Shown piece by piece: positions 36,695 through 57,882 of a stretch of 64,000 nucleotides of DNA. Made by a program: the position numbers and the translations under genes. The notes below the pieces were generated by a model. The model made no database searches. It was given only the letters and a program-made list of their open reading frames with translations, and was not told the DNA's origin. Source of the stretch: Desulfonauticus sp. (lineage in GTDB: Bacteria; Desulfobacterota; Desulfovibrionia; Desulfovibrionales; Desulfonatronovibrionaceae); NCBI GenBank assembly GCA_030950395.1, contig JAUZRP010000012.1, positions 1,048 to 65,047 of the forward strand, read 5' to 3'. How positions within the stretch are numbered: position 1 is the first letter of the stretch; every line of letters begins with the position of its first letter.

Positions 36695-36739
36695 TACAAC
36701 CTCTAGAACATCTACAACCTCTAGAACCTCTAGAACATC
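36695..36739. repeat. imperfect tandem repeat with three copies of CCTCTAGAA
   Basis: TACAACCTCTAGAACATC / TACAACCTCTAGAA / CCTCTAGAACATC, in the pyrC-yfcE intergenic gap. Confidence 0.6.
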
Positions 36740-36802
36740 CAAAACCTTCACCATCACCTACAGCCCATAAATCACAAATTGCCAACAACCAATTTCTGAT
36801 TA

Positions 36803-40402: not shown

Positions 40403-40600
40403 TCAAAGACGAAAAACAAACCTGCTCCATATATCAGGACATTTTATAGCCCAGAGTCTATCACTAACCAAGCCCTAAAAATAAACTTCCGTTGACATTA
40501 ATCTTCACGTTTTCAACTGTAGTTTATATATCAAAAAAACTTATTTCCTGAATTTTATTCTAACATATTGATTTATAAAAATTTTTTTAACAAAAAATTT

Positions 40601-40616
40601 TGGCACACTCCTTGTT
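40601..40616 (+). promoter_or_regulatory. sigma54-type -24/-12 promoter candidate
   Basis: TGGCAC-ACTCC-TTGT compared with the consensus TGGCAC-N5-TTGC: correct spacing, with one mismatch in the -12 element. It lies 38 nt upstream of GTG 40654 (RBS AGGAG at 40641-40645). The operon it heads encodes a sigma54 activator. Confidence 0.55.
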
Positions 40617-40653
40617 ATAAAAAAGGTAACTTTTACAACAAGGAGAAGTAAAA

Positions 40654-41412
40654 GTGTTTTTACTCAGCAAATCTTTTCAAAAAGACGTGAAACAAATACT
40701 AAAACAAACAACTAGTCTAAAAAATATTATTTTTAATATTGATAATTCTTATAATCGTAAATATTATCCTACTAAAAGAAAAATTGACAAAGCAAAAAGA
40801 ATTGTACACGAAGGTAAATCATTGTATGAATTCAAAAAAGCTGCTTATGAAGCAAAAGTTAAAGAATTTAAGTTATGCCTGGATGAATTAATTTTTTCTA
40901 TAGAGAAAATAATTTCTATAGAGAAAAACTACATAATTCAGATACAATCAGAATTTAATGTTCCAGTTGCTCCTAAAATTAGAGAAAGTTATTTGCTAAA
41001 AATATTAAAAATTATAGATAACACTTATACGATAAGAGGAAAAAATATTTTTTGTTTCTATATACAACCTTGGTTAACAATAGATATAATCACCAAATTT
41101 ATAGAAGAAATAGAAAGTTATAAAGCTTTGAAACAAGCTAAATCTTATAAAGAAGAAGTGTGGGTATGGGTAAAAAAAATAAATTCTATTATAAATGAAC
41201 TTGAGTTAAAAAAAAGAGATTTAAAGTTATTAACAAAGTCTGTAAATAAAATAATTAGTCTGGTTTTATCTGCCAAAAACAAAGAAATGGAAAATATTGT
41301 AAGGGAAAATTTTATTAAACCTCTTTTAACAGAACACCTTTTTACTAAAGAACTTAAATTAACTAACGCTAGTATAAAATTAATTAAACAAGTAGAAAAT
41401 TTTAACTTATAA
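40654..41412 (+). CDS. hypothetical Lys-rich protein (252 aa), no recognisable family
   Basis: Long ORF with RBS and GTG start. Very AT-rich. First gene after the sigma54-type promoter. Confidence 0.5.
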   Translation: MFLLSKSFQKDVKQILKQTTSLKNIIFNIDNSYNRKYYPTKRKIDKAKRIVHEGKSLYEFKKAAYEAKVKEFKLCLDELIFSIEKIISIEKNYIIQIQSEFNVPVAPKIRESYLLKILKIIDNTYTIRGKNIFCFYIQPWLTIDIITKFIEEIESYKALKQAKSYKEEVWVWVKKINSIINELELKKRDLKLLTKSVNKIISLVLSAKNKEMENIVRENFIKPLLTEHLFTKELKLTNASIKLIKQVENFNL

Positions 41413-41430
41413 CCAAAAAAGGAGCTAAAA

Positions 41431-41790
41431 ATGAAAAATGAATTGGTTAAATTAGTTAAAACAGAAAAATTACCCAAATCTTTTCCAACAAAAATTAGCT
41501 CTGTATCAAAAAATTTAAAACATAATGATATATCACTTAAAGGTAAAAATATATTACTTTATTTAAAGTATGTTATTAAATATATCGAACATACCAGAGA
41601 AATAAATAAACTCAAAAAAGAACACGATCAAAAAATGTTTCAGCTAAATATGGAAGCTGAAATACGTCATAAAGAGATTGATAAAAAATTTATTTTAAAA
41701 AATAAAATTCTAGATATAATAGAAAAAAATGTAGAAAATATCACTCCAGAAATGTTAGAACAGTATGTAAAAATTTACATAAATAGTTAA
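41431..41790 (+). CDS. hypothetical Lys/Glu-rich, probably helical protein (119 aa)
   Basis: RBS AAGGAG 8 nt upstream of the ATG and an 18-nt gap to the previous gene. No family recognised. Confidence 0.5.
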   Translation: MKNELVKLVKTEKLPKSFPTKISSVSKNLKHNDISLKGKNILLYLKYVIKYIEHTREINKLKKEHDQKMFQLNMEAEIRHKEIDKKFILKNKILDIIEKNVENITPEMLEQYVKIYINS

Positions 41791-41817
41791 AATAAAATCT
41801 GTATAGATAAAGAAAAA

Positions 41818-42129
41818 ATGATTACTATATTAACAGAAATAGTTACATCATTAATAGAAAAATTTGGACATGTAGTTATTTTAGAAATAATTTCTTTTCT
41901 ACTCTCTAAGAAAAAAGAGAAAACAGAACAATTATATAAAATTCAAGAATTTGAGAAGTTTATAGAATTACATGAACAAATCCTAAAAAAGCAATTTATA
42001 AACATAGAACTAAAAGAGAAGATGGCAAAACTTATAGAAAAAAAACTTCAGGAAACAATATCCACAAATGACACACTTACTTTTAAAAGTTTTTTAGAAA
42101 GCTATTATAAACTTTTAACTCAAACTTAA
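41818..42129 (+). CDS. hypothetical small protein (103 aa) with a hydrophobic/amphipathic N-terminus
   Basis: MITILTEIVTSLIEKFGHVVILEIISFLL followed by a charged helical tail. No family recognised. Confidence 0.45.
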   Translation: MITILTEIVTSLIEKFGHVVILEIISFLLSKKKEKTEQLYKIQEFEKFIELHEQILKKQFINIELKEKMAKLIEKKLQETISTNDTLTFKSFLESYYKLLTQT

Positions 42130-42144
42130 GTTAAGGATACAATT

Positions 42145-42978
42145 ATGCATCACAATAAATATTGGTACAAAGTTTTATTTCACAAGGCAGACTTAGATAC
42201 CGTACTCACGGCCAAACTGGCAAGTGTAACCTGCTGGCGATTTTTAACTTCTGTGCCCAAAGCCACAGAGTTTGACCTTTTAGATACTCAGGTCCTATGC
42301 ATAGAAGTTGGTGGTTCTGGACAGGTTAGCCTACACAACTTTGACCATCACGATCCCTTTCACTACTTCCCTCCGGCTTGCAAGCAGGCTTACGACTACT
42401 TTGGGTGGGAAGATAAAAAATGGGAAAAAATAGTTCATTACGTCTGTTTAGTAGATGAGGGTAATCCGGTGGACGTAAACTTTCCTTCTTTATCCAACAT
42501 ATTTTCTGGTATGTGCTTGCTAATAGACGATCCAATAGAGCAGTTTTTAACTGGCCTATCTATTATTGATACAGTGTATGTCAAAGGCTTTGATCCCTTT
42601 CAAGCCCTTCCAGAATTACCAGAATGGAAACACTTTATTTTGGCCAAAGAACAAAACTTAGCTCAATTGCAACAAGACAGTAAAAATATCGTAACATTTT
42701 ACACAAAAACTAATATTTTTTGTGGATTTCTTGAGTCAAATGCGGTAGGAGGGTTTAAAATACTCTATGACAAGGGCTGTGAAGTAGGTGTGTTGTATAG
42801 TCCAAGACAAAACAAGTACACTATCGGCTCTAAACATCTAAATTTAACTAAACTTTTACAACAATTTCAATCTATTGAAGATGGTTGGGGTGGGAGACAA
42901 AACATTTTTGGTTCTCCTTATAGAGGCACTAAATTAACTCCAGCTGAAGTAATCAAGATAATTAAGGAAACGTTATGA
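42145..42978 (+). CDS. compact DHH/DHHA1-like phosphoesterase (NrnA/NrN-like) candidate
   Basis: Motif order resembles the DHH family: FHKADLDTVLTA (H-x3-D-x-D), NFDHHDP (DHH), VCLVDEGN, and C-terminal DGWGGRQNIFGSP (GGGH-like DHHA1 motif). Confidence 0.55.
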   Translation: MHHNKYWYKVLFHKADLDTVLTAKLASVTCWRFLTSVPKATEFDLLDTQVLCIEVGGSGQVSLHNFDHHDPFHYFPPACKQAYDYFGWEDKKWEKIVHYVCLVDEGNPVDVNFPSLSNIFSGMCLLIDDPIEQFLTGLSIIDTVYVKGFDPFQALPELPEWKHFILAKEQNLAQLQQDSKNIVTFYTKTNIFCGFLESNAVGGFKILYDKGCEVGVLYSPRQNKYTIGSKHLNLTKLLQQFQSIEDGWGGRQNIFGSPYRGTKLTPAEVIKIIKETL

Positions 42979-44471
42979 AAAAAAGAGTGTTAATCTCTTA
43001 CACAGGCAATCAAGATCCTCTAAACAAACAGGGGAAAGAGGGTCCTATTCTAACTCTTATAAAAGGGAAAAGATATGAATTTGAAGAAGTATATCTTTTA
43101 TATACCCGTTCAAAGGACAGTAGAAACGATCATCTCGAAACTGCAAAGGCTACCAAAGAAGCTATAAACAAAATCCATCCTCAAATAGAAGTTCACCTCT
43201 TGCCCATAAATACAGATGACCCTTCAGACCACATACTCATTTATAAGTTAACTCAAAAGGCTTTATCTGAAATAAAAACTCGTCTAAATGAAAAAAATAC
43301 ACGTATATTTATCAACATTTCTTCTGGCACCCCTCAAATGCACATAGCTTTTTTTCTATTAGTGGCTAGCCGGTACATTGCAGCCACTATGTTGTACCAG
43401 ACTCCACCTCAATTTGGCGGACAGATAAGAGAAATAATTCCTTGGTGTGAAGATATGCCTTCTATTTTGCCTTCTATTCCCAGAGGAAAACCAGAGTCCA
43501 CCAACATCCCTCTGGAAAATCTTTGTCAGGAAATAGGTCTAAAGGGAAAAAGTCCTGTTTTTTTGAACGCTCTTTTACACGTCCAAAAGTATGCTCCTTA
43601 TGATTTACCTGTAATTATTTTAGGAGAAAGTGGAACAGGCAAGGACCTATTTGCAAGATTAATTCACCTCACCAGTCCCAGGAAAGACAAAAGATTTCTT
43701 GCTTTTAACTGTGCGGCTATCCCAGAAAATTTGGCAGAAAGTGAGCTTTTTGGTTACAAAAAAGGCGCTTTTACAGGAGCTAGCATAGATAGAGATGGTC
43801 TATTTAAACAAGCAGACAGGGGAACTATATTTCTAGACGAGATTGGGGACCTATCTCTAAACTTACAGGCCAAGCTTTTGCGAGTGCTGGAAAATGGAGA
43901 AATTTTACCTATTGGAGCTAAGTGTGTAGAAAACGTTGACGTAAGGGTTATCGCTGCTACTCACAAAAACCTGGAAGATATGGTTAGTCAAGGCAAGTTT
44001 CGAGAAGATCTTTATTATAGGATAAATATTTTAAAAATAGATCTACCACCTCTAAGAGATAGAAAAGAAGACATTCCCGAAATATCCAAACACATTCTAC
44101 AAGAGTTTTGCGAACAAAATCAAATTAAAAAAACCTTTTCTGACCGGGCCCTATCTGCTCTTATGGCCTACCACTGGCCAGGTAACATACGAGAATTAAA
44201 AACGTTTGTGTGGAGAGCCGCTATTGAAGCTGAAGGAGAAGTTATAGATTATAAAGACTTGCAACTCTCTTATTCTTCAGAAAACAACCTCCTTAAAGAA
44301 CTACCTGCAACACCTTATGAAGGTTTTCAGTTAAACGAAGTTTTAGATAGATTAAGGATGTATTACTACAAAACAGCGTTAAAAAAAGCAGGGGGAAATA
44401 AGAGCAAGGCCGCAAGGCTGCTGGGAGTAAGTCCTCAAGCAATCTCTAAAATTTTCAAAAAGGAGGAGTAA
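42975..44471 (+). CDS. RtcR-like regulator: N-terminal CARF-like domain + sigma54-interaction AAA+ domain + Fis-type HTH
   Basis: VLISYTGNQDP...INISSGTPQMHIAFFLL (CARF-like). AAA+ core: GESGTGKD, YKKGAFTGA, IFLDEIGDL, FREDLYYRINI, HWPGNIRELK. C-terminal HTH: KSKAARLLGVSPQAISKIF. Confidence 0.85.
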   Translation: MKKRVLISYTGNQDPLNKQGKEGPILTLIKGKRYEFEEVYLLYTRSKDSRNDHLETAKATKEAINKIHPQIEVHLLPINTDDPSDHILIYKLTQKALSEIKTRLNEKNTRIFINISSGTPQMHIAFFLLVASRYIAATMLYQTPPQFGGQIREIIPWCEDMPSILPSIPRGKPESTNIPLENLCQEIGLKGKSPVFLNALLHVQKYAPYDLPVIILGESGTGKDLFARLIHLTSPRKDKRFLAFNCAAIPENLAESELFGYKKGAFTGASIDRDGLFKQADRGTIFLDEIGDLSLNLQAKLLRVLENGEILPIGAKCVENVDVRVIAATHKNLEDMVSQGKFREDLYYRINILKIDLPPLRDRKEDIPEISKHILQEFCEQNQIKKTFSDRALSALMAYHWPGNIRELKTFVWRAAIEAEGEVIDYKDLQLSYSSENNLLKELPATPYEGFQLNEVLDRLRMYYYKTALKKAGGNKSKAARLLGVSPQAISKIFKKEE

Positions 44472-45982
44472 TGGGGTATTATTTTAGTTTGCAATATTCA
44501 GGTATTCAAAAAACTGTTTTTAGGTACAATAGACTGTGGTCTATTGCAGGCATAAGCCAGATATTATCCCACTTAAATGAGCTGGAGATGGTAAGTATTG
44601 CTCAAAACCACGGGGGCAGTGTGGTAGTTGCTGGAGGTGGTAAGTTTACAGCTCGCTTTCCTGAAAGAGAAAAAGCTCTTTTAGCCAAAGAAGAGATCAT
44701 AAAAGTACTTTCTATCACACTCCCCATGCTAGAATTTCAATCCAGTCCTGTATTAGAAGGGAACTCGTTCCAAGAGATAAAATACGGCTACAGTGCAGAG
44801 AATACAGTTGTGCCTGGCATACTGGATTACTTAAACGAAGCCAAAAAATCTTATAGAGGATTTGGCTATTCTTTTAATCCCCACCTTAAGCTCTGCGACG
44901 AGTGTAGTGAATATCCTGCAGAGCACAAAGACAAAGAAGAAAAATTATGTAGGATTTGTTTTTGGGCCAAAAAAAATGCAAAACTAAACTACTCTCGCCA
45001 ATTTAGCTCTGATTGCACCACCTTAGAAAAGATTTATTTTAACTTTTTGGCTGACTTTGATCAAGAAGTGCAGGTTCCTTTAAACCTAGAAGATATATTT
45101 CCAGAAGGCCAGGAAAAGAAAAGGATTGCGGTGTGGGTCTCAGATTTGAACAACATGAATCAAAAAGTCCCCATTTGGTTAAATCAAAAAGAAGACGAAA
45201 TAAAAGCAACTTTTGACAAAGTAACTCAGATAAACGTGGACATTATCACTCAGGCCCTAAAAGATACCTTTCAAAACATTGTGGTTCAAAGAGAAGATAG
45301 CTATTTTATTCCTTTTCGCCTCATCGTGGCAGGAGGAGACGACCTATGCATTGTAATGGATGCCAAGTACGTGCTTAAATTTGCCACTAATCTCCATTAT
45401 GCTTTAAAAAACAAAATTGCTCAGTTAGATAAAGGACATCCTCTCCATCCTCAGTGGTTACAAGCACGTTCTAAAGACAACGGGAAGCTGGGACAATACT
45501 GTTTTGGAGCAAGCTTTGTAATTACAGACTTACATACAGCCTTTATAGACGTCCATAGATTAGCTGAAGACTTAATGAGGGAAGCCAAAGAAAACACAGA
45601 AAGAAAAGACAATTCTATAAATTGGCAAATCCTTTCTACAGATTTTTCTCCTGCAGAAAGTCTCCTCAACTTTCACAAGCCGTTGTTTTTTGAATCCCAG
45701 GATGAACAACCTGGTTTTTGTGATTATTATAAGTTATGTCAAAAATATCACACCCTATCGTCTTCAAAAATTTTTCAATTAGCAGACATACTGATGGAAC
45801 ATTTTGCTACAGGTGCAGACCTAAAAAAACAGATCCTTTCTTTACCTCAGATCTGGAAAAAGGGGCACGTATTAAGAAAACTTTTGCAAGAAAAAATTTT
45901 ACAAGATAACAACCACAATTTTCATCCCCAAAGATTAGCTAGTCTTTTAGAACTACTAACCCTCTATAAGGAGGCCAAATAA
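44471..45982 (+). CDS. cas10: minimal Cas10 (503 aa) lacking an HD domain, with an intact cyclase Palm (GGDD)
   Basis: Starts directly at the Cas10 Palm1 signature (LQYSGIQKTVF, VVAGGGKFTARF). Zn knuckle CDEC...CRIC. Palm2 VWVSDLNNMN and RLIVAGGDDLCIVMD, then FGASFVITDLH...LMREAK. Confidence 0.8.
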   Translation: MGYYFSLQYSGIQKTVFRYNRLWSIAGISQILSHLNELEMVSIAQNHGGSVVVAGGGKFTARFPEREKALLAKEEIIKVLSITLPMLEFQSSPVLEGNSFQEIKYGYSAENTVVPGILDYLNEAKKSYRGFGYSFNPHLKLCDECSEYPAEHKDKEEKLCRICFWAKKNAKLNYSRQFSSDCTTLEKIYFNFLADFDQEVQVPLNLEDIFPEGQEKKRIAVWVSDLNNMNQKVPIWLNQKEDEIKATFDKVTQINVDIITQALKDTFQNIVVQREDSYFIPFRLIVAGGDDLCIVMDAKYVLKFATNLHYALKNKIAQLDKGHPLHPQWLQARSKDNGKLGQYCFGASFVITDLHTAFIDVHRLAEDLMREAKENTERKDNSINWQILSTDFSPAESLLNFHKPLFFESQDEQPGFCDYYKLCQKYHTLSSSKIFQLADILMEHFATGADLKKQILSLPQIWKKGHVLRKLLQEKILQDNNHNFHPQRLASLLELLTLYKEAK

Positions 45983-45983
45983 A

Positions 45984-47825
45984 ATGTACTTTTCTAAAGG
46001 AAAACTAAAGGTAAAAGCCAGAGGTTACTGGTTTACCCTTGGAGGAGAAAAAGGTTCTTTTGGCTATTACCCCCACCTCAAAGATAAAGACAACTTGCCC
46101 ATATATCCCGATACTCAACTCAAAGGGAATATCAGAGATGGGCTAGAATGGTACTTAAAACTGCAAGGAACATCTTTACCCCAAGAAATAGTTTCTCATA
46201 TTTTTGTAACAGATTTACGCTTGTCTAACCCTGCTCTCTGGCAAAGAGATAGATTTCAAGTCAAGCCAAGAATTGCTATTGACGACACGAGCCACACCGT
46301 TCAGGAGCATAATCTAGCCTTTATGGAACTGGCTTATTTAGACGGTTTAGAACTAGAAGCAGACGTTTATTTAGGTTATATTTCAGACCAAAGCCAGCAT
46401 CAACAACTAAAAAATTGGCTGAAAAAAAGTGTTCAGCTTATGCCTGACATGGGAAGTTTTCGTTCACGGGGAATGGGCAAAGGAGATTATAAACTCCAGT
46501 GGCTAGAAGACAAAACCATCTCGCCCACTCTAGAAGATATAGAAGTGGAAGCCAAACCTTTATTGTATTGTCTAAAAAACCTAACCAATTTTAGAAACAA
46601 ACCTATAGAACCAGATAGTTACAATTATGTTCCAACTCTCCGCTATATTACTGCCCATCAATTAAGGTCGTGGTTTATCAAAACTTATTACCAAATTTTT
46701 CACGAATGGCCAGACATTACAGAGCTGGCCAAAATTAACTTTCCCTATCTCTATCCTTGTGAGGTGAATAAAGACCAATTTTATCTGGCTTATCCTGCAG
46801 CCATGACCAGTTTTATAGAGCACTCAAACAAAGGACCACAAATAATAGATTTTTTATCTCATCCCCAAAAAAATCCAATCCACGATCACCCCGCCATTAC
46901 TAGAGTCAAAAGAAAAGCAATCCCTGATCACATTTATGTTGCACCAGGTGAGCAACCTAAAGTTGTAGAAATTTCTATTGGCAAACGGATCAGAAATAGT
47001 TTGAACGATAAATTTTCGTCTTTAGAGGAAAAAGGACTTTTTGTGCAAGAATTTATCCCGGCCAACACTATGTTTGGAGGAATTATCTCGTTTTCTAAAC
47101 CGCTAGAAAAATGTTTTGGGCAAAGGTTTCAATATATCCTTTGCAACATAACACCCACATTAAAAGGAAGCTTATTTGCACCTTACCTACAAATTTACAA
47201 CGACCATACCCAAAAAAATAGCCAGCATCATCTGGTAATAGCCCCTATACCTTACAGGCCCTTGCAATCCCAATCATCAAGATGGATAGTGCAAGAAATA
47301 GAAGGCAGAAAAAAGGTCATTCAGGACAGAGTTTCTTTAATAAAAATTGGCACTAACAGAAGTTATAACGTTTACTTAAAAAGACCTAAAAGACCACGCA
47401 TAGTTATTCAACAAGGCTCTGTATTGCTCGAAGAAATTAATGGCCAGACAATACCCTGGAGAGGTTTGTCTAAGAGCGTGCTTCTGTCTAAGTCCTCTAC
47501 TCTGGAAACCAAAAATTCAAACGCCCAACCAGATGCTAAAGCAGTTGATCTGGCCCAAAAACTCTATCAAGAACTTAGTGCATCTCATCTTGGATTTTTG
47601 AGAAACTTTTTAAACAAAAAAATACCCCTACCCACCCTAAAAGACATCTCCCTGGATAGGCAAGACAAGTACACCAGAAAAGGGAAGACCAACCTTAGTT
47701 TACTTTACGCGCATCTTGCCTCATTAATAGACAAAGATAACTCAGGAGAAAGTTTGAGAAAGTTCGTAGAGGATTTAGTGGCAGAAATAAGAAGCCTAAA
47801 ATGGCAAAAGGAGTATAAACAATGA
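45984..47825 (+). CDS. multidomain RAMP protein (Cas5/Csx10-like and/or Cas7-like N-terminal modules, helical Cas11-like C-terminus)
   Basis: RAMP motif LPIYPDTQLKGNIRDGLEW and G-rich loop MGSFRSRGMGKGDY. A second RAMP-like LRYITAHQLRSWF. The last ~110 aa look all-helical. Domain identities are inferred. Confidence 0.55.
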   Translation: MYFSKGKLKVKARGYWFTLGGEKGSFGYYPHLKDKDNLPIYPDTQLKGNIRDGLEWYLKLQGTSLPQEIVSHIFVTDLRLSNPALWQRDRFQVKPRIAIDDTSHTVQEHNLAFMELAYLDGLELEADVYLGYISDQSQHQQLKNWLKKSVQLMPDMGSFRSRGMGKGDYKLQWLEDKTISPTLEDIEVEAKPLLYCLKNLTNFRNKPIEPDSYNYVPTLRYITAHQLRSWFIKTYYQIFHEWPDITELAKINFPYLYPCEVNKDQFYLAYPAAMTSFIEHSNKGPQIIDFLSHPQKNPIHDHPAITRVKRKAIPDHIYVAPGEQPKVVEISIGKRIRNSLNDKFSSLEEKGLFVQEFIPANTMFGGIISFSKPLEKCFGQRFQYILCNITPTLKGSLFAPYLQIYNDHTQKNSQHHLVIAPIPYRPLQSQSSRWIVQEIEGRKKVIQDRVSLIKIGTNRSYNVYLKRPKRPRIVIQQGSVLLEEINGQTIPWRGLSKSVLLSKSSTLETKNSNAQPDAKAVDLAQKLYQELSASHLGFLRNFLNKKIPLPTLKDISLDRQDKYTRKGKTNLSLLYAHLASLIDKDNSGESLRKFVEDLVAEIRSLKWQKEYKQ

Positions 47826-49174
47826 TAGGGAAAAAATGTGTCTTAAAAGTCAATTTAGATTTTTCGTTAACCACTCCTCTTATTATTAAGTCAGAAAGTA
47901 ACGAAGACTACATTGATGCCAAAATAGATCGAACTCCAGATGGAAAACTCTACATCAACGGTTACGTATGGGCCTCGTTATTTAGACGAGCAGCAAAAAG
48001 ACTAAAAAAAGTGCCACATTTATTTCACAAATTAGGCAACTACGAAGGCAAAGAAGGCGTATCTCTATTTTGGTTTGAGGGCTCTAGCGTAGATCTAGTG
48101 ATTACGGACATAAGACCGGGCCTAAACATCCACAGACGATATGGCAGCGCGCTAGATGGAGCTCTTTACTTTGAAGAAATCGTGCCCTGTGGAATGCGTA
48201 TCCCTCTTAGTTTTAAAGTATTTGCTGACGAGTTTAACGAACTTGAGTCAGTTCTAAAAACTTTGCAGGAGGCTATATACATTATTGACTCGGGCATAGA
48301 AAATATTGGCGGAAATTGGAGTTATGGTCTAGGGAGATTAAAGTTTGTTTCTGGTACTTATCAAATGCTAGACCTTAGCCGGGACAGTGACCTCGAACTC
48401 TTAGCAGAAGACAAAATTTTAAAAAATTCTTTTCACCCCCAAGCAGGCAAGGTTCAACAAGTCTGGATAAAATACAAGGTCAAAGCCAGAATAGAAAAGG
48501 GCCAATTATTGGCTATTCATTCCGAACTTCCACCTTTGGATTTAACAAATCAAAAAGCCAAACTCCTTCCAGAAGAACCTGACCACTACGTTTTTCGCTC
48601 TTTTGTGCTGGAAGACGGCTCTCCCAAACAAAAATTTGTCCTGCCAGGAAAAATCATTAGACAGGCTTTGTTTTCTCAACACATTGAAAGAAAATTAAGG
48701 ACCCAAGGGGAGCACGTCTGCTCTTTAAGAGGAGACAAGTGCACTTGCGCCATCTGTGAGCAAGCGCGCTTAGAAAAGCCAAAACTAAAAAAAGCCCCAG
48801 ATTGTCAATGCAAAATCTGCCGCTGGTTTGGATCTACTGACTCCAGAGGGATTATAGCTGTTACAGACGCGGTTATAAAAAATGCCTCAACTGTAGATCT
48901 TAGAAGGATCCAACTCTGTGAACACTCTATGCAAAACATAAACTTATTTTTTGAAGAATACTTAACCCAAGGCAACTTTGAGTTTGAAATACTGATAGAC
49001 CAACCTAAAGATAACCAGGAACTTTTAGAAAATGTAGAGCAAGTGCTAGAGGAAATGACAGCCCAAAATGCTCCCCCAGGATGGTACAGATTGGGCAATT
49101 CTACTACGTGCGCTGGTAGCATAAGAGTATTAGAATGGAATAAAGAGCAAGTGCAGGAGGAAGAAAATGCATGA
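47822..49174 (+). CDS. fusion of two Cas7 (Csm3/Cmr4-like) RAMP domains
   Basis: Module 1: TTPLIIKS...IDAKIDRTPDGKLYINGYVWASLFRR and NIGGNWSYGLGRLKF. Module 2: FVLPGKIIRQALFS, Cys cluster CSLRGDKCTCAIC...CQCKICRWFGSTDSRG, and GWYRLGNSTTCAGSIRV. Confidence 0.7.
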   Translation: MIGKKCVLKVNLDFSLTTPLIIKSESNEDYIDAKIDRTPDGKLYINGYVWASLFRRAAKRLKKVPHLFHKLGNYEGKEGVSLFWFEGSSVDLVITDIRPGLNIHRRYGSALDGALYFEEIVPCGMRIPLSFKVFADEFNELESVLKTLQEAIYIIDSGIENIGGNWSYGLGRLKFVSGTYQMLDLSRDSDLELLAEDKILKNSFHPQAGKVQQVWIKYKVKARIEKGQLLAIHSELPPLDLTNQKAKLLPEEPDHYVFRSFVLEDGSPKQKFVLPGKIIRQALFSQHIERKLRTQGEHVCSLRGDKCTCAICEQARLEKPKLKKAPDCQCKICRWFGSTDSRGIIAVTDAVIKNASTVDLRRIQLCEHSMQNINLFFEEYLTQGNFEFEILIDQPKDNQELLENVEQVLEEMTAQNAPPGWYRLGNSTTCAGSIRVLEWNKEQVQEEENA

Positions 49175-49610: not shown

Positions 49611-49648
49611 AAATCCCTCAAACACCCCAAAATAAATGGAGGCCAATT

Positions 49649-51526: not shown

Positions 51527-53568
51527 TTTCTTTAGAACCCTTGTATTTTTTACATTGCACGTTTCAGGTAGTAGAGTCTATTCACAACTTGCCTTACTTT
51601 ACGGGGCAACACTGGTCTGGTTTATTGCGAGACGTGTACAGAGGACTATTTGACGAGTCTATGCCAGACACAATAGCTGTCATTCCCTACGAAACAGGTC
51701 TATCTTCTATACTTGAAGGTTCCAGGGTTTCTATTTTACTCAAAGTTCCTGCAGCCTTACTAGAGCAGATTAAAAAAGTTTTATTGGCTTTACCTCAATT
51801 TTCACACCTCAAAGGGCATCTTGTGCCCCAGAAGAGAATTGTGCTGGAAAAGGTCATTTGCGCGCTTTCTCAAAAAGAACTTTTTCTTGAAGAACCAGAA
51901 ACTTTTCAAATCAAACACGTGGAGTCAGCTGTACAGCAGTTAAGGCAATCTAAAACCATTACCCTTATGTTTTATACTCCTCTAAGACTTTCTAGACCTG
52001 CAGGCACAAAGGAAAAAGGACACAACTTTATAGATAGCGACTTTTTGTGCAACCCTTTAGCTGGGGTTATATTTTTGGAAAAGTTTATTTCCTCTATAAG
52101 AAATATATCTTTTACTGCCCCAAATAGCCAATGTTCTCTTGAGCCCGGAGCTATTTTTTGGATAGATACCAGTTACAATAGCCTCAATACCAAAACCATA
52201 GGAGGAATAATAGGCAAAGTAAAATTGACCAACGTAGATCAAAATTTGTTTTTACCTCTCGTTTTGGGACAATACACAGGAGTTGGCAAAAACAACAGCT
52301 TTGGACTGGGATATTACACCATAAAAGAAGTGCCCAACCTATTTCCCTTTGTTTTGTCCAACAATCCCTTTGGATCTGACTTTGATCCTAACCGTCCATT
52401 TTCTTCTCTAAACTTAAGACAGCTTAAGAGTGTAAGGTTTCCATGGATAAAAAACAATTGTTTTCAAGATACATTAGAGCTGGATAGACAGTACAACACC
52501 TTTTCTAAAGAAAAGAAAAAAGACGTTTTACACAGCCTTTTCCCCTTACACCACCATTTACCTCCAGAAGACAAAAAAATAGACCATACGGTGGAGGATC
52601 TGGTCCAAAGAAAACCTATGTTTCTGACCAGATTTGTATCCAGGGTGCGCAGTGAAGGAGAATATCTAGTAATCGAAATGGGCGATAAATTAAAGATAAA
52701 AAATCTTTGGAGCACCATTGGCCACCTTTTTTTGATAGGCAAGCCACCTGTTACCACGGGTATAATCTACAAAGCCATGCAATGCGGGATTCCTGTTACT
52801 TTTATGAACATGATGGGCAAAACTCAGGGACACCTGTATCCAGAAGGTCACGATCTGGCTATTTATACCAACTTACAATTAAAGAGGCAACAGGACAAAG
52901 ACTTTATTCTGGAATTTGCCAAAGAAATAGTCTCTGCCAAAATTCACAACTCTATAGTCATCCTTAGAAGAAACAAACAGAATTACGAGGAGTTAAAAGA
53001 AATTTTAAATTCTATTAACAAGGTCAAAGACATAGACGCGTTAAGAGGTTATGAAGGGATAGCAGCAAAAGCCTATTTTAAAAAGTTTAGAACCCTGATA
53101 GAAACTTTTGGGTTTGAAAACAGAGAATATCATCCTTCTACTGATCCAGTAAACAGCATGCTCTCTTTTTGTTATTCTTTACTTTACAATCGCCTTGCTT
53201 CTATTTTGAGAATAAGAGGTTTAAACCCGAGACTAGGACTGTATCACGCGTCTCGAGGCAGACACGCTGCTTTGGCTTCAGATCTAATGGAAGAATTACG
53301 GCACGTGGCAGAAAGAATAGTATTAAAGATAATTCACAGAAAAGAAATTAAAACAGATCAATTTATTTATAAGGAACAAAAGGGAAAAAAGTATTGTGAG
53401 ATACCAAGAGAGATAATTAGTCTGTTGGTCTATAGATTTGAAGAAGTAATGCATCAAAACAACGCTCTTTATTCAGGAGAGTTGTATTACTTTTTGGATA
53501 AGATGGTTCAACGATTTATTTTATTTTTACAAAACAAAGCACCATATAAGGCAATAAGAATAAGATGA
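51523..53568 (+). CDS. cas1: Cas6-like domain fused to Cas1 (no reverse transcriptase domain)
   Basis: N-terminal ~275 aa end in the Cas6-type G-rich loop GVGKNNSFGLGYYTIKE. C-terminal ~330 aa carry Cas1 motifs (LRGYEGIAAKAYF, STDPVNSMLSFCYSLLY, GLYHASRGRHAALASDLMEELR). Confidence 0.75.
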   Translation: MISLEPLYFLHCTFQVVESIHNLPYFTGQHWSGLLRDVYRGLFDESMPDTIAVIPYETGLSSILEGSRVSILLKVPAALLEQIKKVLLALPQFSHLKGHLVPQKRIVLEKVICALSQKELFLEEPETFQIKHVESAVQQLRQSKTITLMFYTPLRLSRPAGTKEKGHNFIDSDFLCNPLAGVIFLEKFISSIRNISFTAPNSQCSLEPGAIFWIDTSYNSLNTKTIGGIIGKVKLTNVDQNLFLPLVLGQYTGVGKNNSFGLGYYTIKEVPNLFPFVLSNNPFGSDFDPNRPFSSLNLRQLKSVRFPWIKNNCFQDTLELDRQYNTFSKEKKKDVLHSLFPLHHHLPPEDKKIDHTVEDLVQRKPMFLTRFVSRVRSEGEYLVIEMGDKLKIKNLWSTIGHLFLIGKPPVTTGIIYKAMQCGIPVTFMNMMGKTQGHLYPEGHDLAIYTNLQLKRQQDKDFILEFAKEIVSAKIHNSIVILRRNKQNYEELKEILNSINKVKDIDALRGYEGIAAKAYFKKFRTLIETFGFENREYHPSTDPVNSMLSFCYSLLYNRLASILRIRGLNPRLGLYHASRGRHAALASDLMEELRHVAERIVLKIIHRKEIKTDQFIYKEQKGKKYCEIPREIISLLVYRFEEVMHQNNALYSGELYYFLDKMVQRFILFLQNKAPYKAIRIR

Positions 53569-53828
53569 TAGTATTAGTTTGTTATGACATTAGCGACGAT
53601 AAAAAGAGAAATAAAGTTGCTGATATTTTGCTAAAAAAAGGTGTCAGGTTGCAAAAGTCTGTATATCTTTTAAACATAAGAAAAGACAACCTAAAGAAAC
53701 TAATGCACCAACTGCGGCAAAATATAGACCTGTGGGATGCTGTGCTCATCTGTCCAGTGTGCAAAAGATGTCAGTCCATGATTTTGCAGGTAAATTGTGA
53801 TAATCGCGAAAAGGCTATCGTATTTTAA
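53565..53828 (+). CDS. cas2: CRISPR-associated endoribonuclease Cas2
   Basis: MIVLVCYDISDDKKRNKVADILLKKGVRLQKSVYLL. Overlaps the cas1 stop by 4 nt. Confidence 0.85.
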   Translation: MIVLVCYDISDDKKRNKVADILLKKGVRLQKSVYLLNIRKDNLKKLMHQLRQNIDLWDAVLICPVCKRCQSMILQVNCDNREKAIVF

Positions 53829-54134
53829 AATGGAGGAGTGATTTTTGGTTATTGAGAATTTATGATGGAAACATAAGTGGGGATGTGAAGTATTAAAGAA
53901 TTTGCCAAAAGTTGTGCGTTTTTTTACACGGTTTTGGGTTCTGTGAAAATTGAAGAGCTTTAATGAAGTCATAACAAGGGGTTATTAAAAATTTCAGGTA
54001 GGGGCATGACGGTCCGTCGCCTATTTTAAGTTTGCGTGAACCTTCTAAAAAAAAGGGTCAAAACAGGTAAAAAAAAGAGAGGTTCACGCAAACGCCCTGA
54101 GAGCCCTTGGGGCTCTAGGGCTAAAAAGGTTGCT
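53829..54134 (+). promoter_or_regulatory. putative CRISPR leader
   Basis: 306-bp non-coding stretch between cas2 and the first, perfect repeat. The degenerate repeat is at the opposite end of the array. Contains two strong hairpins (54031-54092 and 54094-54121). Confidence 0.5.
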
Positions 54135-55705
54135 GTTGAAATGACCTCTGAATTCAGAGGGGCTGCGACGAAATTAAAAGGCTCACAGGGAAAGAGCCTT
54201 CTTAAGCTTCTGTGTTGAAATGACCTCTGAATTCAGAGGGGCTGCGACAGCCTCAACGACAGAGCCGTGGGGGACTCCTAAGGTTGAAATGACCTCTGAA
54301 TTCAGAGGGGCTGCGACCGAGGTATTCCACCATCTGGAATACCTCATCCTCAGTTGAAATGACCTCTGAATTCAGAGGGGCTGCGACAATTTTTTACCTC
54401 TTTAATTGTAAGTTTCATGATCTCGTTGAAATGACCTCTGAATTCAGAGGGGCTGCGACCGCTTCAATTTCTTGCTGCTGCTTCAAAGCCTGCAACGTTG
54501 AAATGACCTCTGAATTCAGAGGGGCTGCGACTTAATTTGTTTTTTAAATCTGCCATGTTCTCCTCCTTTTAAAGTTGAAATGACCTCTGAATTCAGAGGG
54601 GCTGCGACTTCGGCCAGTTCTCTTTCCCAGTCGCTCCAATCCCCTTCTGTTGAAATGACCTCTGAATTCAGAGGGGCTGCGACTCTAGCGTAAGGGGGGT
54701 TTTTTTTTGCGTTGTATATAAAAAAGTTGAAATGACCTCTGAATTCAGAGGGGCTGCGACCTTTCCCTTCAGGGATATTGAATACTTTCACCTTTTCCGT
54801 TGAAATGACCTCTGAATTCAGAGGGGCTGCGACTGGCATAAACTTCTTATCTTTGGGAAACAAGCCGAAGTTGAAATGACCTCTGAATTCAGAGGGGCTG
54901 CGACTTCGGTGTGATGCAATTTTTGATAAAGTGATACGATTTTTATGTTGAAATGACCTCTGAATTCAGAGGGGCTGCGACATTTGGATGAGATCCTTTC
55001 GGGTGGTTTTCGTCCGGCTCGTTGAAATGACCTCTGAATTCAGAGGGGCTGCGACATTTTTTGTGCGTTATCGTTTCTGCCTTTTACTACCTCCGTTGAA
55101 ATGACCTCTGAATTCAGAGGGGCTGCGACTGCTTTGGGGATTTCTTTTATCCAGGTCCTTCCCTGCGTTGAAATGACCTCTGAATTCAGAGGGGCTGCGA
55201 CCTCCTTCTTCGTATTCTTCTGTATTTAGATTATTCCATCGTTGAAATGACCTCTGAATTCAGAGGGGCTGCGACGGGAGAACTTTTCCTTTTCGGCTAC
55301 TGAGCAAAAAGTTGAAATGACCTCTGAATTCAGAGGGGCTGCGACATCTTATAATCTATATAGGATGTTTGCTGAGCTGTTTTCAGTTGAAATGACCTCT
55401 GAATTCAGAGGGGCTGCGACTTAAAGGCTGCTGGATTTAAATGGAACGCCCAGCGGTTGAAATGACCTCTGAATTCAGAGGGGCTGCGACAATAGATTTA
55501 TCGGTAATTACAGAGGACCTTATTGTTGAAATGACCTCTGAATTCAGAGGGGCTGCGACCCTTCAGCCAGCTTTGGATGTAGGCTGAGGTGTTTTCGTTG
55601 AAATGACCTCTGAATTCAGAGGGGCTGCGACGAATAATTTCGTGAAAGAAGGTTAAATAATACTCTTCTTGTTGAAATGACCTCTGAATTCAGAGGGTTG
55701 ATTTT
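54135..55705 (+). CRISPR. CRISPR array: 22 repeats of 35 bp, 21 spacers of 34-44 bp
   Basis: Repeat GTTGAAATGACCTCTGAATTCAGAGGGGCTGCGAC. Copies start at 54135, 54214, 54283, 54353, 54425, 54497, 54574, 54649, 54726, 54799, 54870, 54947, 55021, 55095, 55167, 55241, 55311, 55386, 55456, 55525 and 55597, all identical. The last copy (55671-55705) diverges after position 27. Confidence 0.97.
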
Positions 55706-55828
55706 TGGTAATTTATAATTAGTGATTTGTTTTTGTGTTTGGGTTATCATAGGGGCAAGCCCCATGTGTCTGCCCAGAGATGGCTATGGAATACTATAGG
55801 ACATTTTAACAACTTATAGAGGAAAATT

Positions 55829-57844
55829 ATGCTTAACATTTATGCAGTAGTAGGAGAAAGGGCTCTTCCCGTTATTTTACCTATTATTAATTTACTTGAT
55901 GGAGAAAACCAACCTTCTCAGGTTGCGCTTATTCACACTGATAAAACCAAAAAAATAGCTGACCTTGCTCAAAATTACCTGAAAAATAAGTACACTAACG
56001 ACTTTCTTTGCACCCAGATCACAACCAATGAATTTTTAGAACAACTAAAAAACAACCAATTAAATTTACAAAACAGTTATTTTAACCTCACCCCCGGACT
56101 AAATTGGTTTATCTCCAAAGTGACTCTCCACTTATCTGGAGCAGAAACCATACTATACGCTGACAACCAGTATCTTTATTTTTTTTCAGCCAAAGACTTT
56201 AGCCAGAAGAACAAATTAGATCTTATAAACATTGGTCTTGACGATTATCTTATTTTAAACCCAGCAATAAAAATCAAACCTACAAAGTCAAAAAAAAGAA
56301 CCATTAATCTTGGGGAGTCTTATAACATACTAGACGTAGTAGATAAAAACAACAAAAGCATTTTAGACGAACGCAAAAGAATCTTGAATTGTATTAATCT
56401 AACTTTTATTACTTTAAAAGAACATAGAGGTTTTCTATATCTATATTTTGATCTTAGAAAAAGATCTATTTCTGATGATTTGTTAAAACAACTTAATGTA
56501 AAAAACAACAACAAACAATATGCTATTTTAAAACTATACAGGATATTATTGGGAGTATTTGAGCCTTTAAATTATAGATTGATCGTATTGTCAGATTGGA
56601 AGAAGTTGATAGATAGAGGAAAATACGATGACGTTTATGTAGTGGAAAAAGAAATTGACTTTAAAAAACTTTACCAAAAACCACCTCTTCCCCACAAACA
56701 CAAGATTAAAGAAGATAAGTCTCAATTGTCTCCTCCATTAAGATTAAAACAAGGCAAAGTCAAAAAAGGATTGTTCGTTTGTCTTGGCGTCAACTTAGAA
56801 CCAACACTAAAAGCAATAAAGTCTCACGCGGCAGACAAAGTAGTAGTATTTCACGATACCAGTCCTAAAATTTTAAACTATACCAAAAAATTACTTGCTA
56901 TAGAACGAAAATATAATTGTAAATTTGAAACAATAGAAACTAATCATAGAGGCAACAATGTGGTGCCTATACTTGTTAAAAAAGTAAAAAATGAAAATAT
57001 CCAATGGTCTATAAACATTACGCCAGGAACAAAAGCTCAAAGTATAGCCCTTAGTGTGGGGGCAAAGTGCGCTGGTATCAAAAAAAATATCTATAGCCTA
57101 AAAGCCAGAAATCTGGAAAATATTTTAACCCAGAAACAGGGAAACGAAATTCCAATCATTAAGCCAGAAGAATTGTTATACTTTTATCTTGATGGAGAAC
57201 ATAGAGACAAAGTACAAAATATAAACTCTGACTTAGAAAAGTTATCTCCTCTATGGGGACAAATATTAACAGGACTGGCAGAGAATAGGGTTCAATATAA
57301 AAGTAACGGTTTTATAGGACTAATTCAAAATAATCCCAATCTTAACGTAAGAATAGACCTAGAAAATCAAAAAATTTACTATCAAGACGTAGATCAAAAC
57401 GTATCTAATGACTTTTTTGATTATCTCTGTAATAAAGAAAATCCAGAATACGATGGCAGGTGGTGGGAACTATTGACCTATTGGGCAGTGTTGCAGGCTA
57501 ACCTGGCCCCACCAGAACAGGTGCGCCTTAACCTAGAAATAGGAAAAGAAAAAAATCCTTTTACAGAATTTGACGTAGTGCTACCCTTTGAAACAAATGT
57601 GATAATTATTTCCTGCAAAGTGGGAAAACAATACTTGATGTTTGAAGATTTTGCCTTGAGAAGTGAAACCAGAAGCAGGTTTGGCAGAATGGCTCTTTGC
57701 TTTTTAGCTACTAACGTATTAGACGTAAAAGACGACCAATTTATTCCAGAAGTTGGTCTCTTAACTCCAAAACAACTTAGCAATCCAGAAATACTGGCTC
57801 AAACTATAAAAAAACATAGAGACAGGTTAAAAACCACCACATAA
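55829..57844 (+). CDS. Can1-like ancillary protein: two CARF-like domains plus a C-terminal PD-(D/E)xK (DUF1887/Card1-type) nuclease domain
   Basis: CARF-like 1: IYAVVGERALPVILPI...FNLTPGLNWFISKV. CARF 2: LFVCLGVNLEPT...INITPGTKAQSIAL. Nuclease: GRWWELLTYW...EFDVVLPFETNVIIISCKVGK. Confidence 0.65.
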   Translation: MLNIYAVVGERALPVILPIINLLDGENQPSQVALIHTDKTKKIADLAQNYLKNKYTNDFLCTQITTNEFLEQLKNNQLNLQNSYFNLTPGLNWFISKVTLHLSGAETILYADNQYLYFFSAKDFSQKNKLDLINIGLDDYLILNPAIKIKPTKSKKRTINLGESYNILDVVDKNNKSILDERKRILNCINLTFITLKEHRGFLYLYFDLRKRSISDDLLKQLNVKNNNKQYAILKLYRILLGVFEPLNYRLIVLSDWKKLIDRGKYDDVYVVEKEIDFKKLYQKPPLPHKHKIKEDKSQLSPPLRLKQGKVKKGLFVCLGVNLEPTLKAIKSHAADKVVVFHDTSPKILNYTKKLLAIERKYNCKFETIETNHRGNNVVPILVKKVKNENIQWSINITPGTKAQSIALSVGAKCAGIKKNIYSLKARNLENILTQKQGNEIPIIKPEELLYFYLDGEHRDKVQNINSDLEKLSPLWGQILTGLAENRVQYKSNGFIGLIQNNPNLNVRIDLENQKIYYQDVDQNVSNDFFDYLCNKENPEYDGRWWELLTYWAVLQANLAPPEQVRLNLEIGKEKNPFTEFDVVLPFETNVIIISCKVGKQYLMFEDFALRSETRSRFGRMALCFLATNVLDVKDDQFIPEVGLLTPKQLSNPEILAQTIKKHRDRLKTTT

Positions 57845-57846
57845 AA

Positions 57847-57882
57847 AGACAAGGAGCAGACGTGCAAGTCTGCTCCTTGTCT
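57847..57882. terminator. bidirectional intrinsic terminator closing the CRISPR island
   Basis: Perfect 15-bp stem AGACAAGGAGCAGAC / GTCTGCTCCTTGTCT with loop GTGCAA. It abuts the stop codon of the convergent flavodoxin-like gene. Confidence 0.75.

Follow-up and report, generated by a model that had tools for sequence, protein, structure and literature searches.

Type III CRISPR-Cas systems respond to a recognised target with nucleotide signals, by which nucleases, proteases and membrane proteins are activated. To our knowledge, the only transcriptional outputs of these systems known so far run via Csa3 and CalpL/T/S. Can a type III system also use its signal to turn on its own operon? A CRISPR-Cas locus in a 64-kb stretch of a metagenome-assembled genome of Desulfonauticus (this whole stretch is called the window in the following) raises this question, as it hosts a gene for a sigma54-type activator fused to a CARF sensor domain, packed between cas10 and the gene of a DHH-like phosphoesterase. 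Such an activator would be a third transcriptional route, one that is energetically gated and that makes the immune system itself inducible.

The CRISPR immune locus is real, and the design of its effector has already been described, as type III-Dv. We have not found a description of its accessory and regulatory layer, i.e. the CARF-sigma54 activator with its candidate promoter and binding site, the DHH-like enzyme and the Can1-type nuclease. Judged by gene content, this layer appears to be a conserved combination, and it recurs over about 40 related loci that were fetched from genomes and metagenomes (these are given L numbers below). The explanation that we favour, with somewhat more belief than doubt, is that cyclic oligoadenylate (cOA) from the III-Dv effector leads the activator to induce its own operon, and that the DHH-like enzyme resets the response. 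The features on which this explanation is built are listed here.

40482-40495 (+ strand) and 40513-40526 (- strand): inverted TAAACT-N3-GTTGA pair, a candidate upstream activating sequence (UAS), about 75-120 nt upstream of the -24 element
40601-40616, + strand: sigma54-type promoter-like element TGGCAC-N5-TTGTT (TGGCACACTCCTTGT at 40601-40615), 38 nt before the GTG of the first open reading frame (ORFan 1)
40608-40645, + strand: 15-nt inverted repeat, 93% complementary, folding energy -15 kcal/mol, z = -2.6
42145-42978, + strand: DHH/DHHA1-fold phosphoesterase, 277 aa, recognised by motifs and by AlphaFold2 (AF2) and Foldseek
42975-44471, + strand: activator of 498 aa with a CARF domain, a sigma54-interaction AAA+ domain and a Fis-type helix-turn-helix (HTH) domain; Walker A motif GESGTGKD, GAFTGA motif
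55829-57844, + strand: Can1/Can2/Card1-type CARF nuclease, 671 aa, with two CARF-like regions and a C-terminal PD-(D/E)xK-like domain

The activator and its candidate control region

Family scans confirm what a preliminary description of this island had read from the sequence, namely a regulator with CARF, sigma54 AAA+ (GAFTGA) and HTH domains. The Pfam matches are Sigma54_activat (6.4e-68) and HTH_8, and the GAFTGA and Walker motifs are visible in the sequence itself. The PADLOC profile RtcR_PspF2--CARF_AAA_HTH (PDLC01995) scores 446 bits, with residues 3-496 aligned to positions 1-477 of its 481. A bona fide RtcR is ruled out, since the RtcR equivalog model (NF038308) reaches 350 bits against a cut-off of 650 and no rtcBA genes are nearby. 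Unlike RtcR, the protein is encoded inside a type III locus, with the DHH-like gene and cas10 as neighbours, and has a CARF domain closest to that of Csm6.

The CARF domain deserves some further detail. Although a word-indexed homology search with the isolated domain gave no match, its profile matches Csm6 of Enterococcus italicus (6tug, 6.7e-13) and Csm6' of S. thermophilus (8pcw, 2e-7), and the motif SGTPQM is common to the activator and these Csm6 matches. The profile matches and the shared motif indicate that the sensor of the activator is a close relative of bona fide cOA-binding CARFs. We take the two matched Csm6 CARFs to be of the cyclic hexa-adenylate (cA6) type.

The closest full-length relative of the activator (54% identity) is found in a syntenic metagenomic locus, L036, where the order is a 66-aa open reading frame (ORF), DHH, activator, cas10, four other effector genes, Cas6-Cas1 and Cas2. 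Among the loci of this Cas10 clade, seven or more independent ones have a full-length RtcR-like gene, i.e. the window, L035/L036, L048, L060, L066, L073 and L009. The locus search therefore finds the DHH gene and the CARF-sigma54 gene in conserved linkage with this Cas10 clade in other genomes, as the preliminary description would have it. In at least six further loci of the clade the same upstream position is taken by a DHH gene together with a pair of extracytoplasmic function (ECF)-type sigma and zf-HC2 anti-sigma genes and a gene in which a Lon protease is joined to a related CARF domain. Because the activator and the Lon-CARF/sigma modules occupy the same position, it seems that two devices for turning a CARF signal into transcription substitute for each other in this clade, and this speaks for the explanation that we favour.

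The gene content of these sister modules can be described for L001-L003, L041-L043, L046 and L067. Upstream of cas10 they carry the DHH, ECF sigma and zf-HC2 anti-sigma genes, a Lon gene with a C-terminal Csm6-type CARF, and a gene for a TraT-like lipoprotein. The modules resemble CalpL/T/S, with CARF replacing SAVED. The logic that we propose for the window is that of CalpL/CalpT/CalpS and of Csa3, where a Cas10 signal leads to a change in transcription. However, CalpL/T/S work by the proteolytic release of an ECF sigma factor and Csa3 is a repressor or activator made of CARF and a winged HTH, whereas in the window the output would go through sigma54 and an ATP-dependent activator, the target of which is likely to be the CRISPR operon itself.

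RtcR-like genes are not restricted to CRISPR loci. Their presence beside restriction-modification (R-M) genes was noted by Makarova et al. 2014 (PMC4012209), and Bell et al. 2024 (PMC11090510) describe CoCoNuT and R-M superoperons that have an RtcR homologue at their head. With RtcR and the RtcR-like bacterial enhancer-binding proteins (bEBPs; PMC4012209, PADLOC RtcR_PspF2, PMC11090510) the window protein shares the CARF-AAA+-HTH architecture, GAFTGA included. As in the RtcR-like family, its gene lies at the start of a row of defence genes, or close to it, with a candidate sigma54 promoter, and it shares a UAS-like motif with the R-M-linked members. In the searchable papers and censuses, a scope that leaves out the 2020 CARF classification, we found no description of an RtcR-like gene in a type III CRISPR locus.

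We now turn to the DNA ahead of the operon. The TGGCAC-N5-TTGT element of the preliminary description is indeed present in front of the first ORF, and predicts a transcription start near 40627. Exact copies of TGGCAC-N5-TTGT number just two in the window, both of them intergenic and correctly oriented. The second copy, TGGCACatcttTTGT (11864-11849, - strand), is followed, after about 27 nt, by the ribosome-binding site and start codon (ATG, 11822) of the fliK-flgD-flgE genes (10158-11822, 9450-10139 and 7710-9365, respectively), and is probably a genuine sigma54 promoter. The mechanical start of the fliK ORF (TTG at 11885) overlaps TGGCACatcttTTGT and is probably wrong. Flagellar hook operons are sigma54-dependent in many bacteria. 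The same variant in front of fliK-flgD-flgE thus makes it plausible that this organism uses sigma54 and the TTGT form of the -12 element.

Related loci carry equivalent elements upstream of the DHH-cas operon, namely TGGCAT-N5-TTGAT in L036 and TGGCAC-N5-TTGCA in L048, where the order is a divergent RtcR-like gene, TGGCACGATAATTGCA and DHH-cas10. In the R-M-linked loci the canonical TGGCAC-N5-TTGCT is found between the activator gene and hsdR (L037:11494-11705, L039:11491-12023), with a conserved AACTTCGGTTGA some 85-115 nt upstream of the sigma54 promoters. The window has AACTTCGGTTGA with one mismatch at 40484, and a second, inverted copy at 40513; the chance of the initial one-mismatch match in the pre-defined 200-nt region is about 1e-3. 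The refined form, TAAACT-N3-GTTGA, has just these two copies in 64 kb (0.08 expected), occurs once per locus in L035-L039, 85-115 nt upstream of sigma54 elements beside RtcR_PspF2 genes, and has two stray matches among the other 33 loci, these counts being made in the same loci from which the motif was refined post hoc. The sigma54-type control of the preliminary description is now backed by comparative evidence, i.e. the fliK variant, the UAS-like pair and the elements of L036 and L048. As a side note, L012 has canonical TGGCAC-N5-TTGCT elements at 3616 and 11038, after a RtcR_PspF2-family gene and before other gene sets.

At 40608-40645, one arm of the inverted repeat covers the -12 region and the other the Shine-Dalgarno sequence of ORFan 1, a ribosome-binding site that pairing would mask only in transcripts beginning upstream of the sigma54 start. 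As transcripts from the sigma54 start would be without the left arm, one may speculate that the repeat insulates the operon from read-through out of rimO, the gene upstream.

Making, receiving and removing the signal: candidate proteins

The preliminary description saw the effector as a signalling-only, unrecognised and partially fused variant of the III-D lineage. The genes in question are as follows.

44471-45982, + strand: Cas10, 503 aa, without an HD domain; GGDD at residues 288-291, a four-Cys zinc finger and a GGGKF palm-1 motif
45984-47825, + strand: RAMP fusion of 613 aa in the Cas7-Cas5-Cas11 position, with an N-terminal RAMP domain
47822-49174, + strand: Cas7-2x, a double Cas7 fusion of 450 aa with two RAMP stretches
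49167-49610, + strand: protein of 147 aa in the Csx19 slot, conserved clade-wide
49649-51526, + strand: Cas7 with insertion, 625 aa, TIGR03986-type (its best NCBIfam match)

Searches of the family libraries and of the PDB bear out the III-D lineage, the HD-less GGDD Cas10 and the fused Cas7 domains, and the family scans also confirm the identities of the RAMP fusion, the double Cas7, the Cas7 with insertion, the Cas6-Cas1 fusion and Cas2. The novelty of the effector does not survive, as the cassette is that of the published type III-Dv (PMC11026444). In the prototype, Synechocystis PCC 6803 (pSYSA CRISPR2; PDB 8s9t; Schwartz et al. 2024, PMC11026444), the operon reads cas10, cas7-cas5-cas11, cas7-2x, csx19 and cas7-insertion, and behind these come cas6, adaptation genes and an array. 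The five effector genes of the window have the identical order, and for four of the five proteins the positional counterpart on pSYSA is the reciprocal best match (23-27% identity). Collinearity and reciprocal best matches argue that this effector is not an unrecognised variant; on its sequence, it is a distant member of the known III-Dv design. A metagenome scan with the Cas10 alignment returned 33 loci, and the five-gene cassette is collinear in each of approximately 30 related loci, i.e. all those of sufficient length for the order to be seen. Type III-D2 is ruled out by a Cas7 that is double, not triple, and by the absence of CorA or VapBC-like genes from the window.

The individual proteins can be compared with the prototype one by one. 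Cas10 matches the PADLOC Cas10 model (3.5e-35), and family scans find its palm domain. In the family alignment the GGDD, zinc finger and palm-1 motifs are invariant and no HD dipeptide is conserved. Cas10 of the prototype likewise carries GGDD and is without HD. A five-sequence Cas10 profile has a single match in the PDB, the III-Dv Cas10 8s9t_C, and the window protein is the reciprocal best match of the Synechocystis III-Dv Cas10, ahead of the III-B Cmr2 of the same plasmid. An exact look-up of the protein in public assemblies gave no match. For the 613-aa fusion the sole PDB match is again to the prototype (8s9t_A, Cas7-Cas5-Cas11), albeit weak (E = 0.036), as are the PADLOC matches to Cas5_IIId and Cas7_IIId; its best Synechocystis partner is Cas7-Cas5-Cas11. 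At the position of the catalytic D26 of the 791-aa Synechocystis protein, all ten clade members examined have Gly, so the Cas7 domain of the 613-aa fusion is probably without its catalytic Asp. The Cas11 part is assigned by position and is putative.

The double Cas7 matches 8s9t_D (Cas7-2x) and Cas7-11 in the PDB, and the Synechocystis Cas7-2x in BLASTP (8e-8). All 10 sequences compared keep the catalytic Asp in the columns of D33 and D246, as does the prototype, so target-RNA cleavage at two sites is expected. This rules out a signalling-only effector, a term that the preliminary description had used too strongly; only the HD DNase is missing. The 625-aa Cas7 with insertion scores 68.5 bits with TIGR03986 (7.6e-19), under the cut-off of 161, and 1e-18 with PADLOC Cas7_IIId, and its profile finds 9wxh_D (a TIGR03986 RAMP), Cas7-11 and the Synechocystis Cas7-insertion (4e-6). 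The terminal Cas7 of the prototype is of the TIGR03986 type as well. Two homologues of this protein (L004:16265-18469 and L009:2049-4193) start with a cold-shock-like domain that matches CspB structures in the PDB; the N-terminus of the window protein is a Lys-rich tail only, with no such domain.

A homologue of the 147-aa protein is found at the same position in every related locus of sufficient length. No PHROG model matches it, and its single-sequence AF2 model, with a predicted local distance difference test (pLDDT) of 43, is too poor for use. The Csx19 assignment is positional and putative.

Downstream, both systems have Cas6, Cas1, Cas2 and an array, with CARF effectors nearby. The differences are in the accessories. 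Cas6 of the window, unlike that of Synechocystis, is fused to Cas1, and in the place of Csx1 and Csm6 there are the Can1/Card1-type nuclease, the DHH-like enzyme and the CARF-sigma54 activator. The regulation of the Synechocystis locus has been reported to involve RpaB, and its complex makes cOA that activates Csx1 (PMC11026444).

The DHH-like enzyme is hidden from the usual family libraries. No Pfam model (DHH and DHHA1 included) matches it, nor does any from NCBIfam, PADLOC or PHROG, and among 62 homologue clusters of the family none has a Pfam domain. One record, from a Desulfonauticus sp. metagenome-assembled genome, is identical to the window protein. D16, D67-H68-H69, D104 and W248-G-G are the same in all of 36 aligned sequences, and D18 is the same in nearly all. 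As the family profile gave noise only against PDB sequences, a fold comparison was needed. An AF2 model made from the alignment (pLDDT 96) was matched by Foldseek, with probability 1.0, to DhhP, NrnA, RecJ, PPX1 and the Bacteroides Nrn, and viral DHH phosphohydrolases match it too. The identity given in the preliminary description is in this way confirmed by motifs and structure prediction.

The family keeps the company of type III genes. Among 34 genome loci with a member, at least 17 have type III, cas or CARF genes no more than 10 kb away, and most of the remaining loci are short contigs or belong to Patescibacteria. Seen from the other side, about two-thirds of the distinct Cas10-clade loci have the DHH-like gene. 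Its direct neighbour, in some cases overlapping it, is a Card1-like gene (L002, L004, L009, L015), a CARF-HD gene (L019), genes of other CARF proteins (L013, L017, L020), the Lon-CARF modules or the activator. This is a small soluble enzyme family with invariant catalytic motifs that is found beside CARF proteins in many phyla, and we propose a putative role in degrading the signal molecule.

There are precedents for such a role, in a membrane-associated DHH-DHHA1 protein of Sulfolobus that degrades cOA (PMC7841402) and in NrN, which degrades a conjugate of S-adenosyl methionine and AMP (SAM-AMP; PMC10600005). Like these, the window protein has the DHH/DHHA1 fold and DHH metal-binding motifs, is encoded by a type III accessory gene and could plausibly serve as an off-switch. 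Unlike them it has no Pfam DHH/DHHA1 match, no CorA partner and no membrane segment, has GWGG in the place of GGGH and is linked to CARF proteins. A CorA gene is found neither in the window nor in the related loci that were examined, so the CorA adjacency of NrN is absent. Such a family is mentioned neither in the 2025 ring-nuclease census (PMC12409355) nor in the 2018 accessory-gene survey, the type III effector survey or the 2025 classification; the DHH enzymes covered in ring-nuclease and type III surveys are limited to NrN, which goes with CorA, and the membrane enzyme of Sulfolobus (PMC7841402, PMC10600005).

A second candidate receiver is the nuclease gene that follows the array, which the preliminary description had called Can1-like. 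Profile and PADLOC searches support a Can1/Can2/Card1-type protein with two CARF-like regions. The Pfam matches, CARF_Card1 and Card1_endonuc, are both below threshold. A six-sequence profile matches Can2 structures (7bdv, 6.6e-8, residues 311-600; 8bao, 5e-6), and PADLOC finds CARF4--CARF_PDDEXK at residues 4-90 and the Csx1 model 'ARF+Nuclease' at 315-636. The extra CARF-like region at residues 4-90 makes a Can1-like, double-CARF reading reasonable. The protein thus shares its C-terminal half, a CARF domain with PD-(D/E)xK, with Can2, and the presence of two CARF-like regions in one polypeptide with Can1. It differs from Can1, Can2 and Card1 in that Can1 is not retrieved by the profile search, Ser replaces the Glu of E-x-K, and a middle domain of about 150 aa has no assignment.

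A proposed self-inducing operon and its rivals

Put together, the parts suggest the following sequence of events. The CRISPR RNA (crRNA)-guided binding of a foreign transcript would activate the HD-less Cas10, which would then make cOA, and cuts in the target RNA by the two Cas7-2x active sites would limit the duration of the signal. At least two receivers may respond, i.e. the Can1/Card1-type nuclease, by collateral nucleic-acid damage, and the CARF domain of the RtcR_PspF2-family activator. The liganded activator would assemble on the TAAACT-N3-GTTGA pair and use ATP to open the sigma54 promoter at 40601. Induction would reach from three cargo ORFs over the DHH gene to the activator and probably on to the cas genes, and as the activator gene is inside the operon that it induces, a positive feedback loop would result. 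Finally, the co-induced DHH/DHHA1 phosphoesterase would degrade the signal or its linear products and so reset the system.

Several observations weigh against this proposal. The promoter element on its own is not significant; with one mismatch allowed there are 6 matches in the window, where 5.65 are expected. Its -12 element is TTGT, with T replacing the C of TTGC, and the binding motif has the post hoc origin described above. On the effector side, the 147-aa protein has no similarity to the Synechocystis Csx19 by BLASTP, profile HMM or hhalign, and no NCBIfam match. In the nuclease family a D...S-C-K motif, with Ser, stands in the place of the catalytic E-C-K of Can2 in all six members. The B. 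fragilis NrN, one of the two DHH precedents, does not cleave cOA (PMC10600005). The two receivers are also at odds, as the activator CARF is closest to the cA6-type Csm6 and the nuclease family is typed as activated by cyclic tetra-adenylate (cA4); effectors of these two types are reported almost never to co-occur (PMC11229360). The locus therefore raises the question of which cOA species is made by a III-Dv-type Cas10.

A further objection comes from relatives of the activator outside CRISPR loci. At 40% identity, these head type I R-M operons and share both the SGTPQM motif of the CARF domain and the UAS, with no Cas10 within 10 kb. For this reason an RtcR-style ligand remains a serious rival, although we rate it as doubtful. 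The architecture would be the same III-Dv, with an activator that senses RNA with cyclic-phosphate ends, rather than a Cas10 product, and induces the CRISPR operon as a stress response. Cyclic-phosphate ends also arise from cleavage by Cas7 and by many RNases. The family is related to RtcR, which is reported to respond to damaged tRNA or RtcAB (PMC7790460, PMC9650030), and a ligand of this type was proposed in the study of CoCoNuT and R-M superoperons (PMC11090510). Against this stands the CARF profile, which is far nearer to the cOA-binding Csm6 (6.7e-13) than by chance, as well as the recurrence of the gene across a single Cas10 clade, in seven independent loci or more. Moreover, the activator alternates with the Lon-CARF and sigma/anti-sigma modules, which resemble the cA4-driven CalpL/T/S, and is co-located with a putative signal-degrading phosphodiesterase.

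A second rival, which we regard as improbable, restricts the reach of the control. The activator and the sigma54 element would act on the first few genes only (the ORFans, DHH and the activator) or on an unlinked target, with the cas genes expressed constitutively from internal promoters, and the '12-gene operon' would be an appearance caused by tight gene packing. Internal promoters for the cas genes are possible, and this too counts against the self-inducing operon. Many pairs of sigma70-like hexamers are found inside the region, though at the chance rate. In L009 and L012 the RtcR-like gene is downstream of or away from the effector genes, and the L012 sigma54 promoters precede other gene sets. 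The packing itself argues the other way. The ORF map reproduces exactly the coordinates and spacings that the preliminary description gave for twelve ORFs, all on the + strand at 40654-53828. Gaps of 18, 27 and 15 nt are followed by spacings of -4, -1, +1, -4, -8, +38, -4 and -4 nt (negative values are overlaps), so that, from DHH as far as cas2, neighbouring genes share 1-8 nt at their stop and start codons. No convincing + strand intrinsic terminator was found at 40654-53828, the packing of DHH, regulator and cas10 is repeated in L035/L036, and in L048 the sigma54 promoter is directly upstream of the DHH-cas10 string.

It is very improbable that the Cas10 clade signals with a non-cOA conjugate (SAM-AMP, as in type III-D2), with the DHH-like protein as the functional equivalent of NrN: type III-D2 and B. 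fragilis III-B complexes do make SAM-AMP, and NrN, a DHH enzyme of the same fold class, degrades it (PMC13294483, PMC10600005), but we set this aside as the window has no triple Cas7, neither it nor any related locus examined has a CorA-type receptor, the receivers that were found are CARF proteins without exception, cOA is what the Synechocystis complex of equivalent architecture makes (PMC11026444), and the Pfam DHH models miss the DHH-like family, which is therefore not a close relative of NrN.

What would follow if the self-inducing operon is correct? Tentatively, and with a good deal of doubt, we suggest that in this Cas10 clade a cOA alarm is wired directly to sigma54 transcription via a CARF-bEBP with a Csm6-type CARF, that the CRISPR operon and a variable cargo slot are induced together, and that the hitherto unrecognised DHH/DHHA1 family is a dedicated ring nuclease which resets the loop. 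If true, CARF-bEBPs would be a new class of cOA receiver, type III systems would gain a new ring-nuclease fold, and the three ORFans in the variable cargo slot could be new inducible effectors.

Cargo genes, adaptation genes and surroundings

The genes between the promoter and the conserved DHH gene are the least conserved part of the island.

40654-41412, + strand: ORFan 1, a soluble protein of 252 aa in which Lys, Ile, Glu and Asn are abundant; GC 23%, GC at third codon positions (GC3) 15%; strong Shine-Dalgarno sequence
41431-41790, + strand: ORFan 2, 119 aa; GC 21%; strong Shine-Dalgarno sequence
41818-42129, + strand: ORFan 3, 103 aa, its N-terminal segment hydrophobic; GC 22%

Their composition (GC 21-23%, GC3 about 15%) is set apart from the 33-40% of every other gene in the island. 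Spurious ORFs are ruled out, as the chance of such open frames in DNA of 22% GC is between about 2e-12 (ORFan 1) and 2e-5. A search of 1.84 billion representative proteins gave no relative of ORFan 1, and no model of Pfam, NCBIfam, PADLOC or PHROG matches it credibly. For ORFans 2 and 3 there is no credible family-library match (for ORFan 3, sub-threshold matches at chance level only) and no relative in IMG/VR, no exhaustive search having been made; PHROG has no match for any of the three. The fetched related loci hold no relative of any ORFan either, and in L036 the slot is filled by an unrelated 66-aa ORF. The preliminary description had grouped these genes with the type III locus; with a different occupant in L036 and a foreign composition, no conserved linkage was found for them. 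From composition and distribution they are best described as real, recently acquired, compositionally foreign and unconserved cargo.

Behind the effector genes follow the adaptation genes and the array.

51523-53568, + strand: Cas6-Cas1 fusion, 681 aa; Pfam Cas1 1.6e-66, Cas6 1.5e-6
53565-53828, + strand: Cas2; Pfam 2e-20, TIGR01573
53829-54134, + strand (orientation inferred): leader region, from cas2 to the first repeat
54135-55705, + strand: CRISPR array of 21 identical 35-nt repeats GTTGAAATGACCTCTGAATTCAGAGGGGCTGCGAC and one repeat that is degenerate at its 3′ end, with 21 spacers of 34-44 nt

In 14 of 17 related loci a reverse transcriptase (RT) segment is found between the Cas6 and Cas1 parts of the fusion. 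It is missing from the window, where Pfam gives no RVT match, from L035/L036 and from L066. The Cas6-Cas1 protein looks like a derivative of Cas6-RT-Cas1 from which the RT was lost. The loci without an RT (the window, L035/L036 and L066; the comparison includes L041-L067) all carry the RtcR-like activator.

The 22 repeats of the preliminary description were found again, as 21 identical copies and a degenerate one. The repeat GTTGAAATGACCTCTGAATTCAGAGGGGCTGCGAC folds into a 6-bp hairpin, and the degenerate copy is at the end of the array distal to cas2. The + strands of the spacers are T-rich, unlike the coding strands of the window, and the reverse complement of spacer 6 reads AAAGGAGGAGAAC-ATG, i.e. 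a ribosome-binding site followed by a start codon. Both observations suggest that crRNAs of the + strand are antisense to mRNAs, as is required for type III targeting. It is strongly supported by these sequence features that the array is read on the + strand, and it is active-looking. An exact search for the repeat in JGI metagenome contigs gave no match, nor did the 29-nt core of one spacer (a single spacer was tried) in IMG/VR. The 34 nt right after the cas2 stop (53833-53866) are repeated at 79% identity after the degenerate last repeat (55693-55726). It looks as if the leader and array were inserted into, or duplicated, the 34-nt sequence that flanks them.

The island is chromosomal, and its seat between rimO and a wrbA-like gene is strongly supported. 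Family scans of the window find housekeeping genes on both sides, with pyrC, pyrB and rimO upstream and the wrbA-like gene and csaA downstream. The island ends at a hairpin.

57845-57884, no strand assigned: perfect 17-bp hairpin, folding energy -31 kcal/mol, z = -9.9, between the convergent genes of the CARF nuclease and the wrbA-like protein

The hairpin is probably a bidirectional terminator. It had been noticed in the preliminary description and is real, although its stem is of 17 bp at 57845-57884 and not of 15 bp at 57847-57882. An Rfam scan of the window found tRNA only. Upstream of the island, an AT-rich stretch at 32001-36000 (GC 0.28-0.30) surrounds a PAS-GGDEF gene (32665-34563), a tRNA-Pro(TGG) gene is at 35940-36016, and a 9/27-nt tandem repeat is at 36680-36747.

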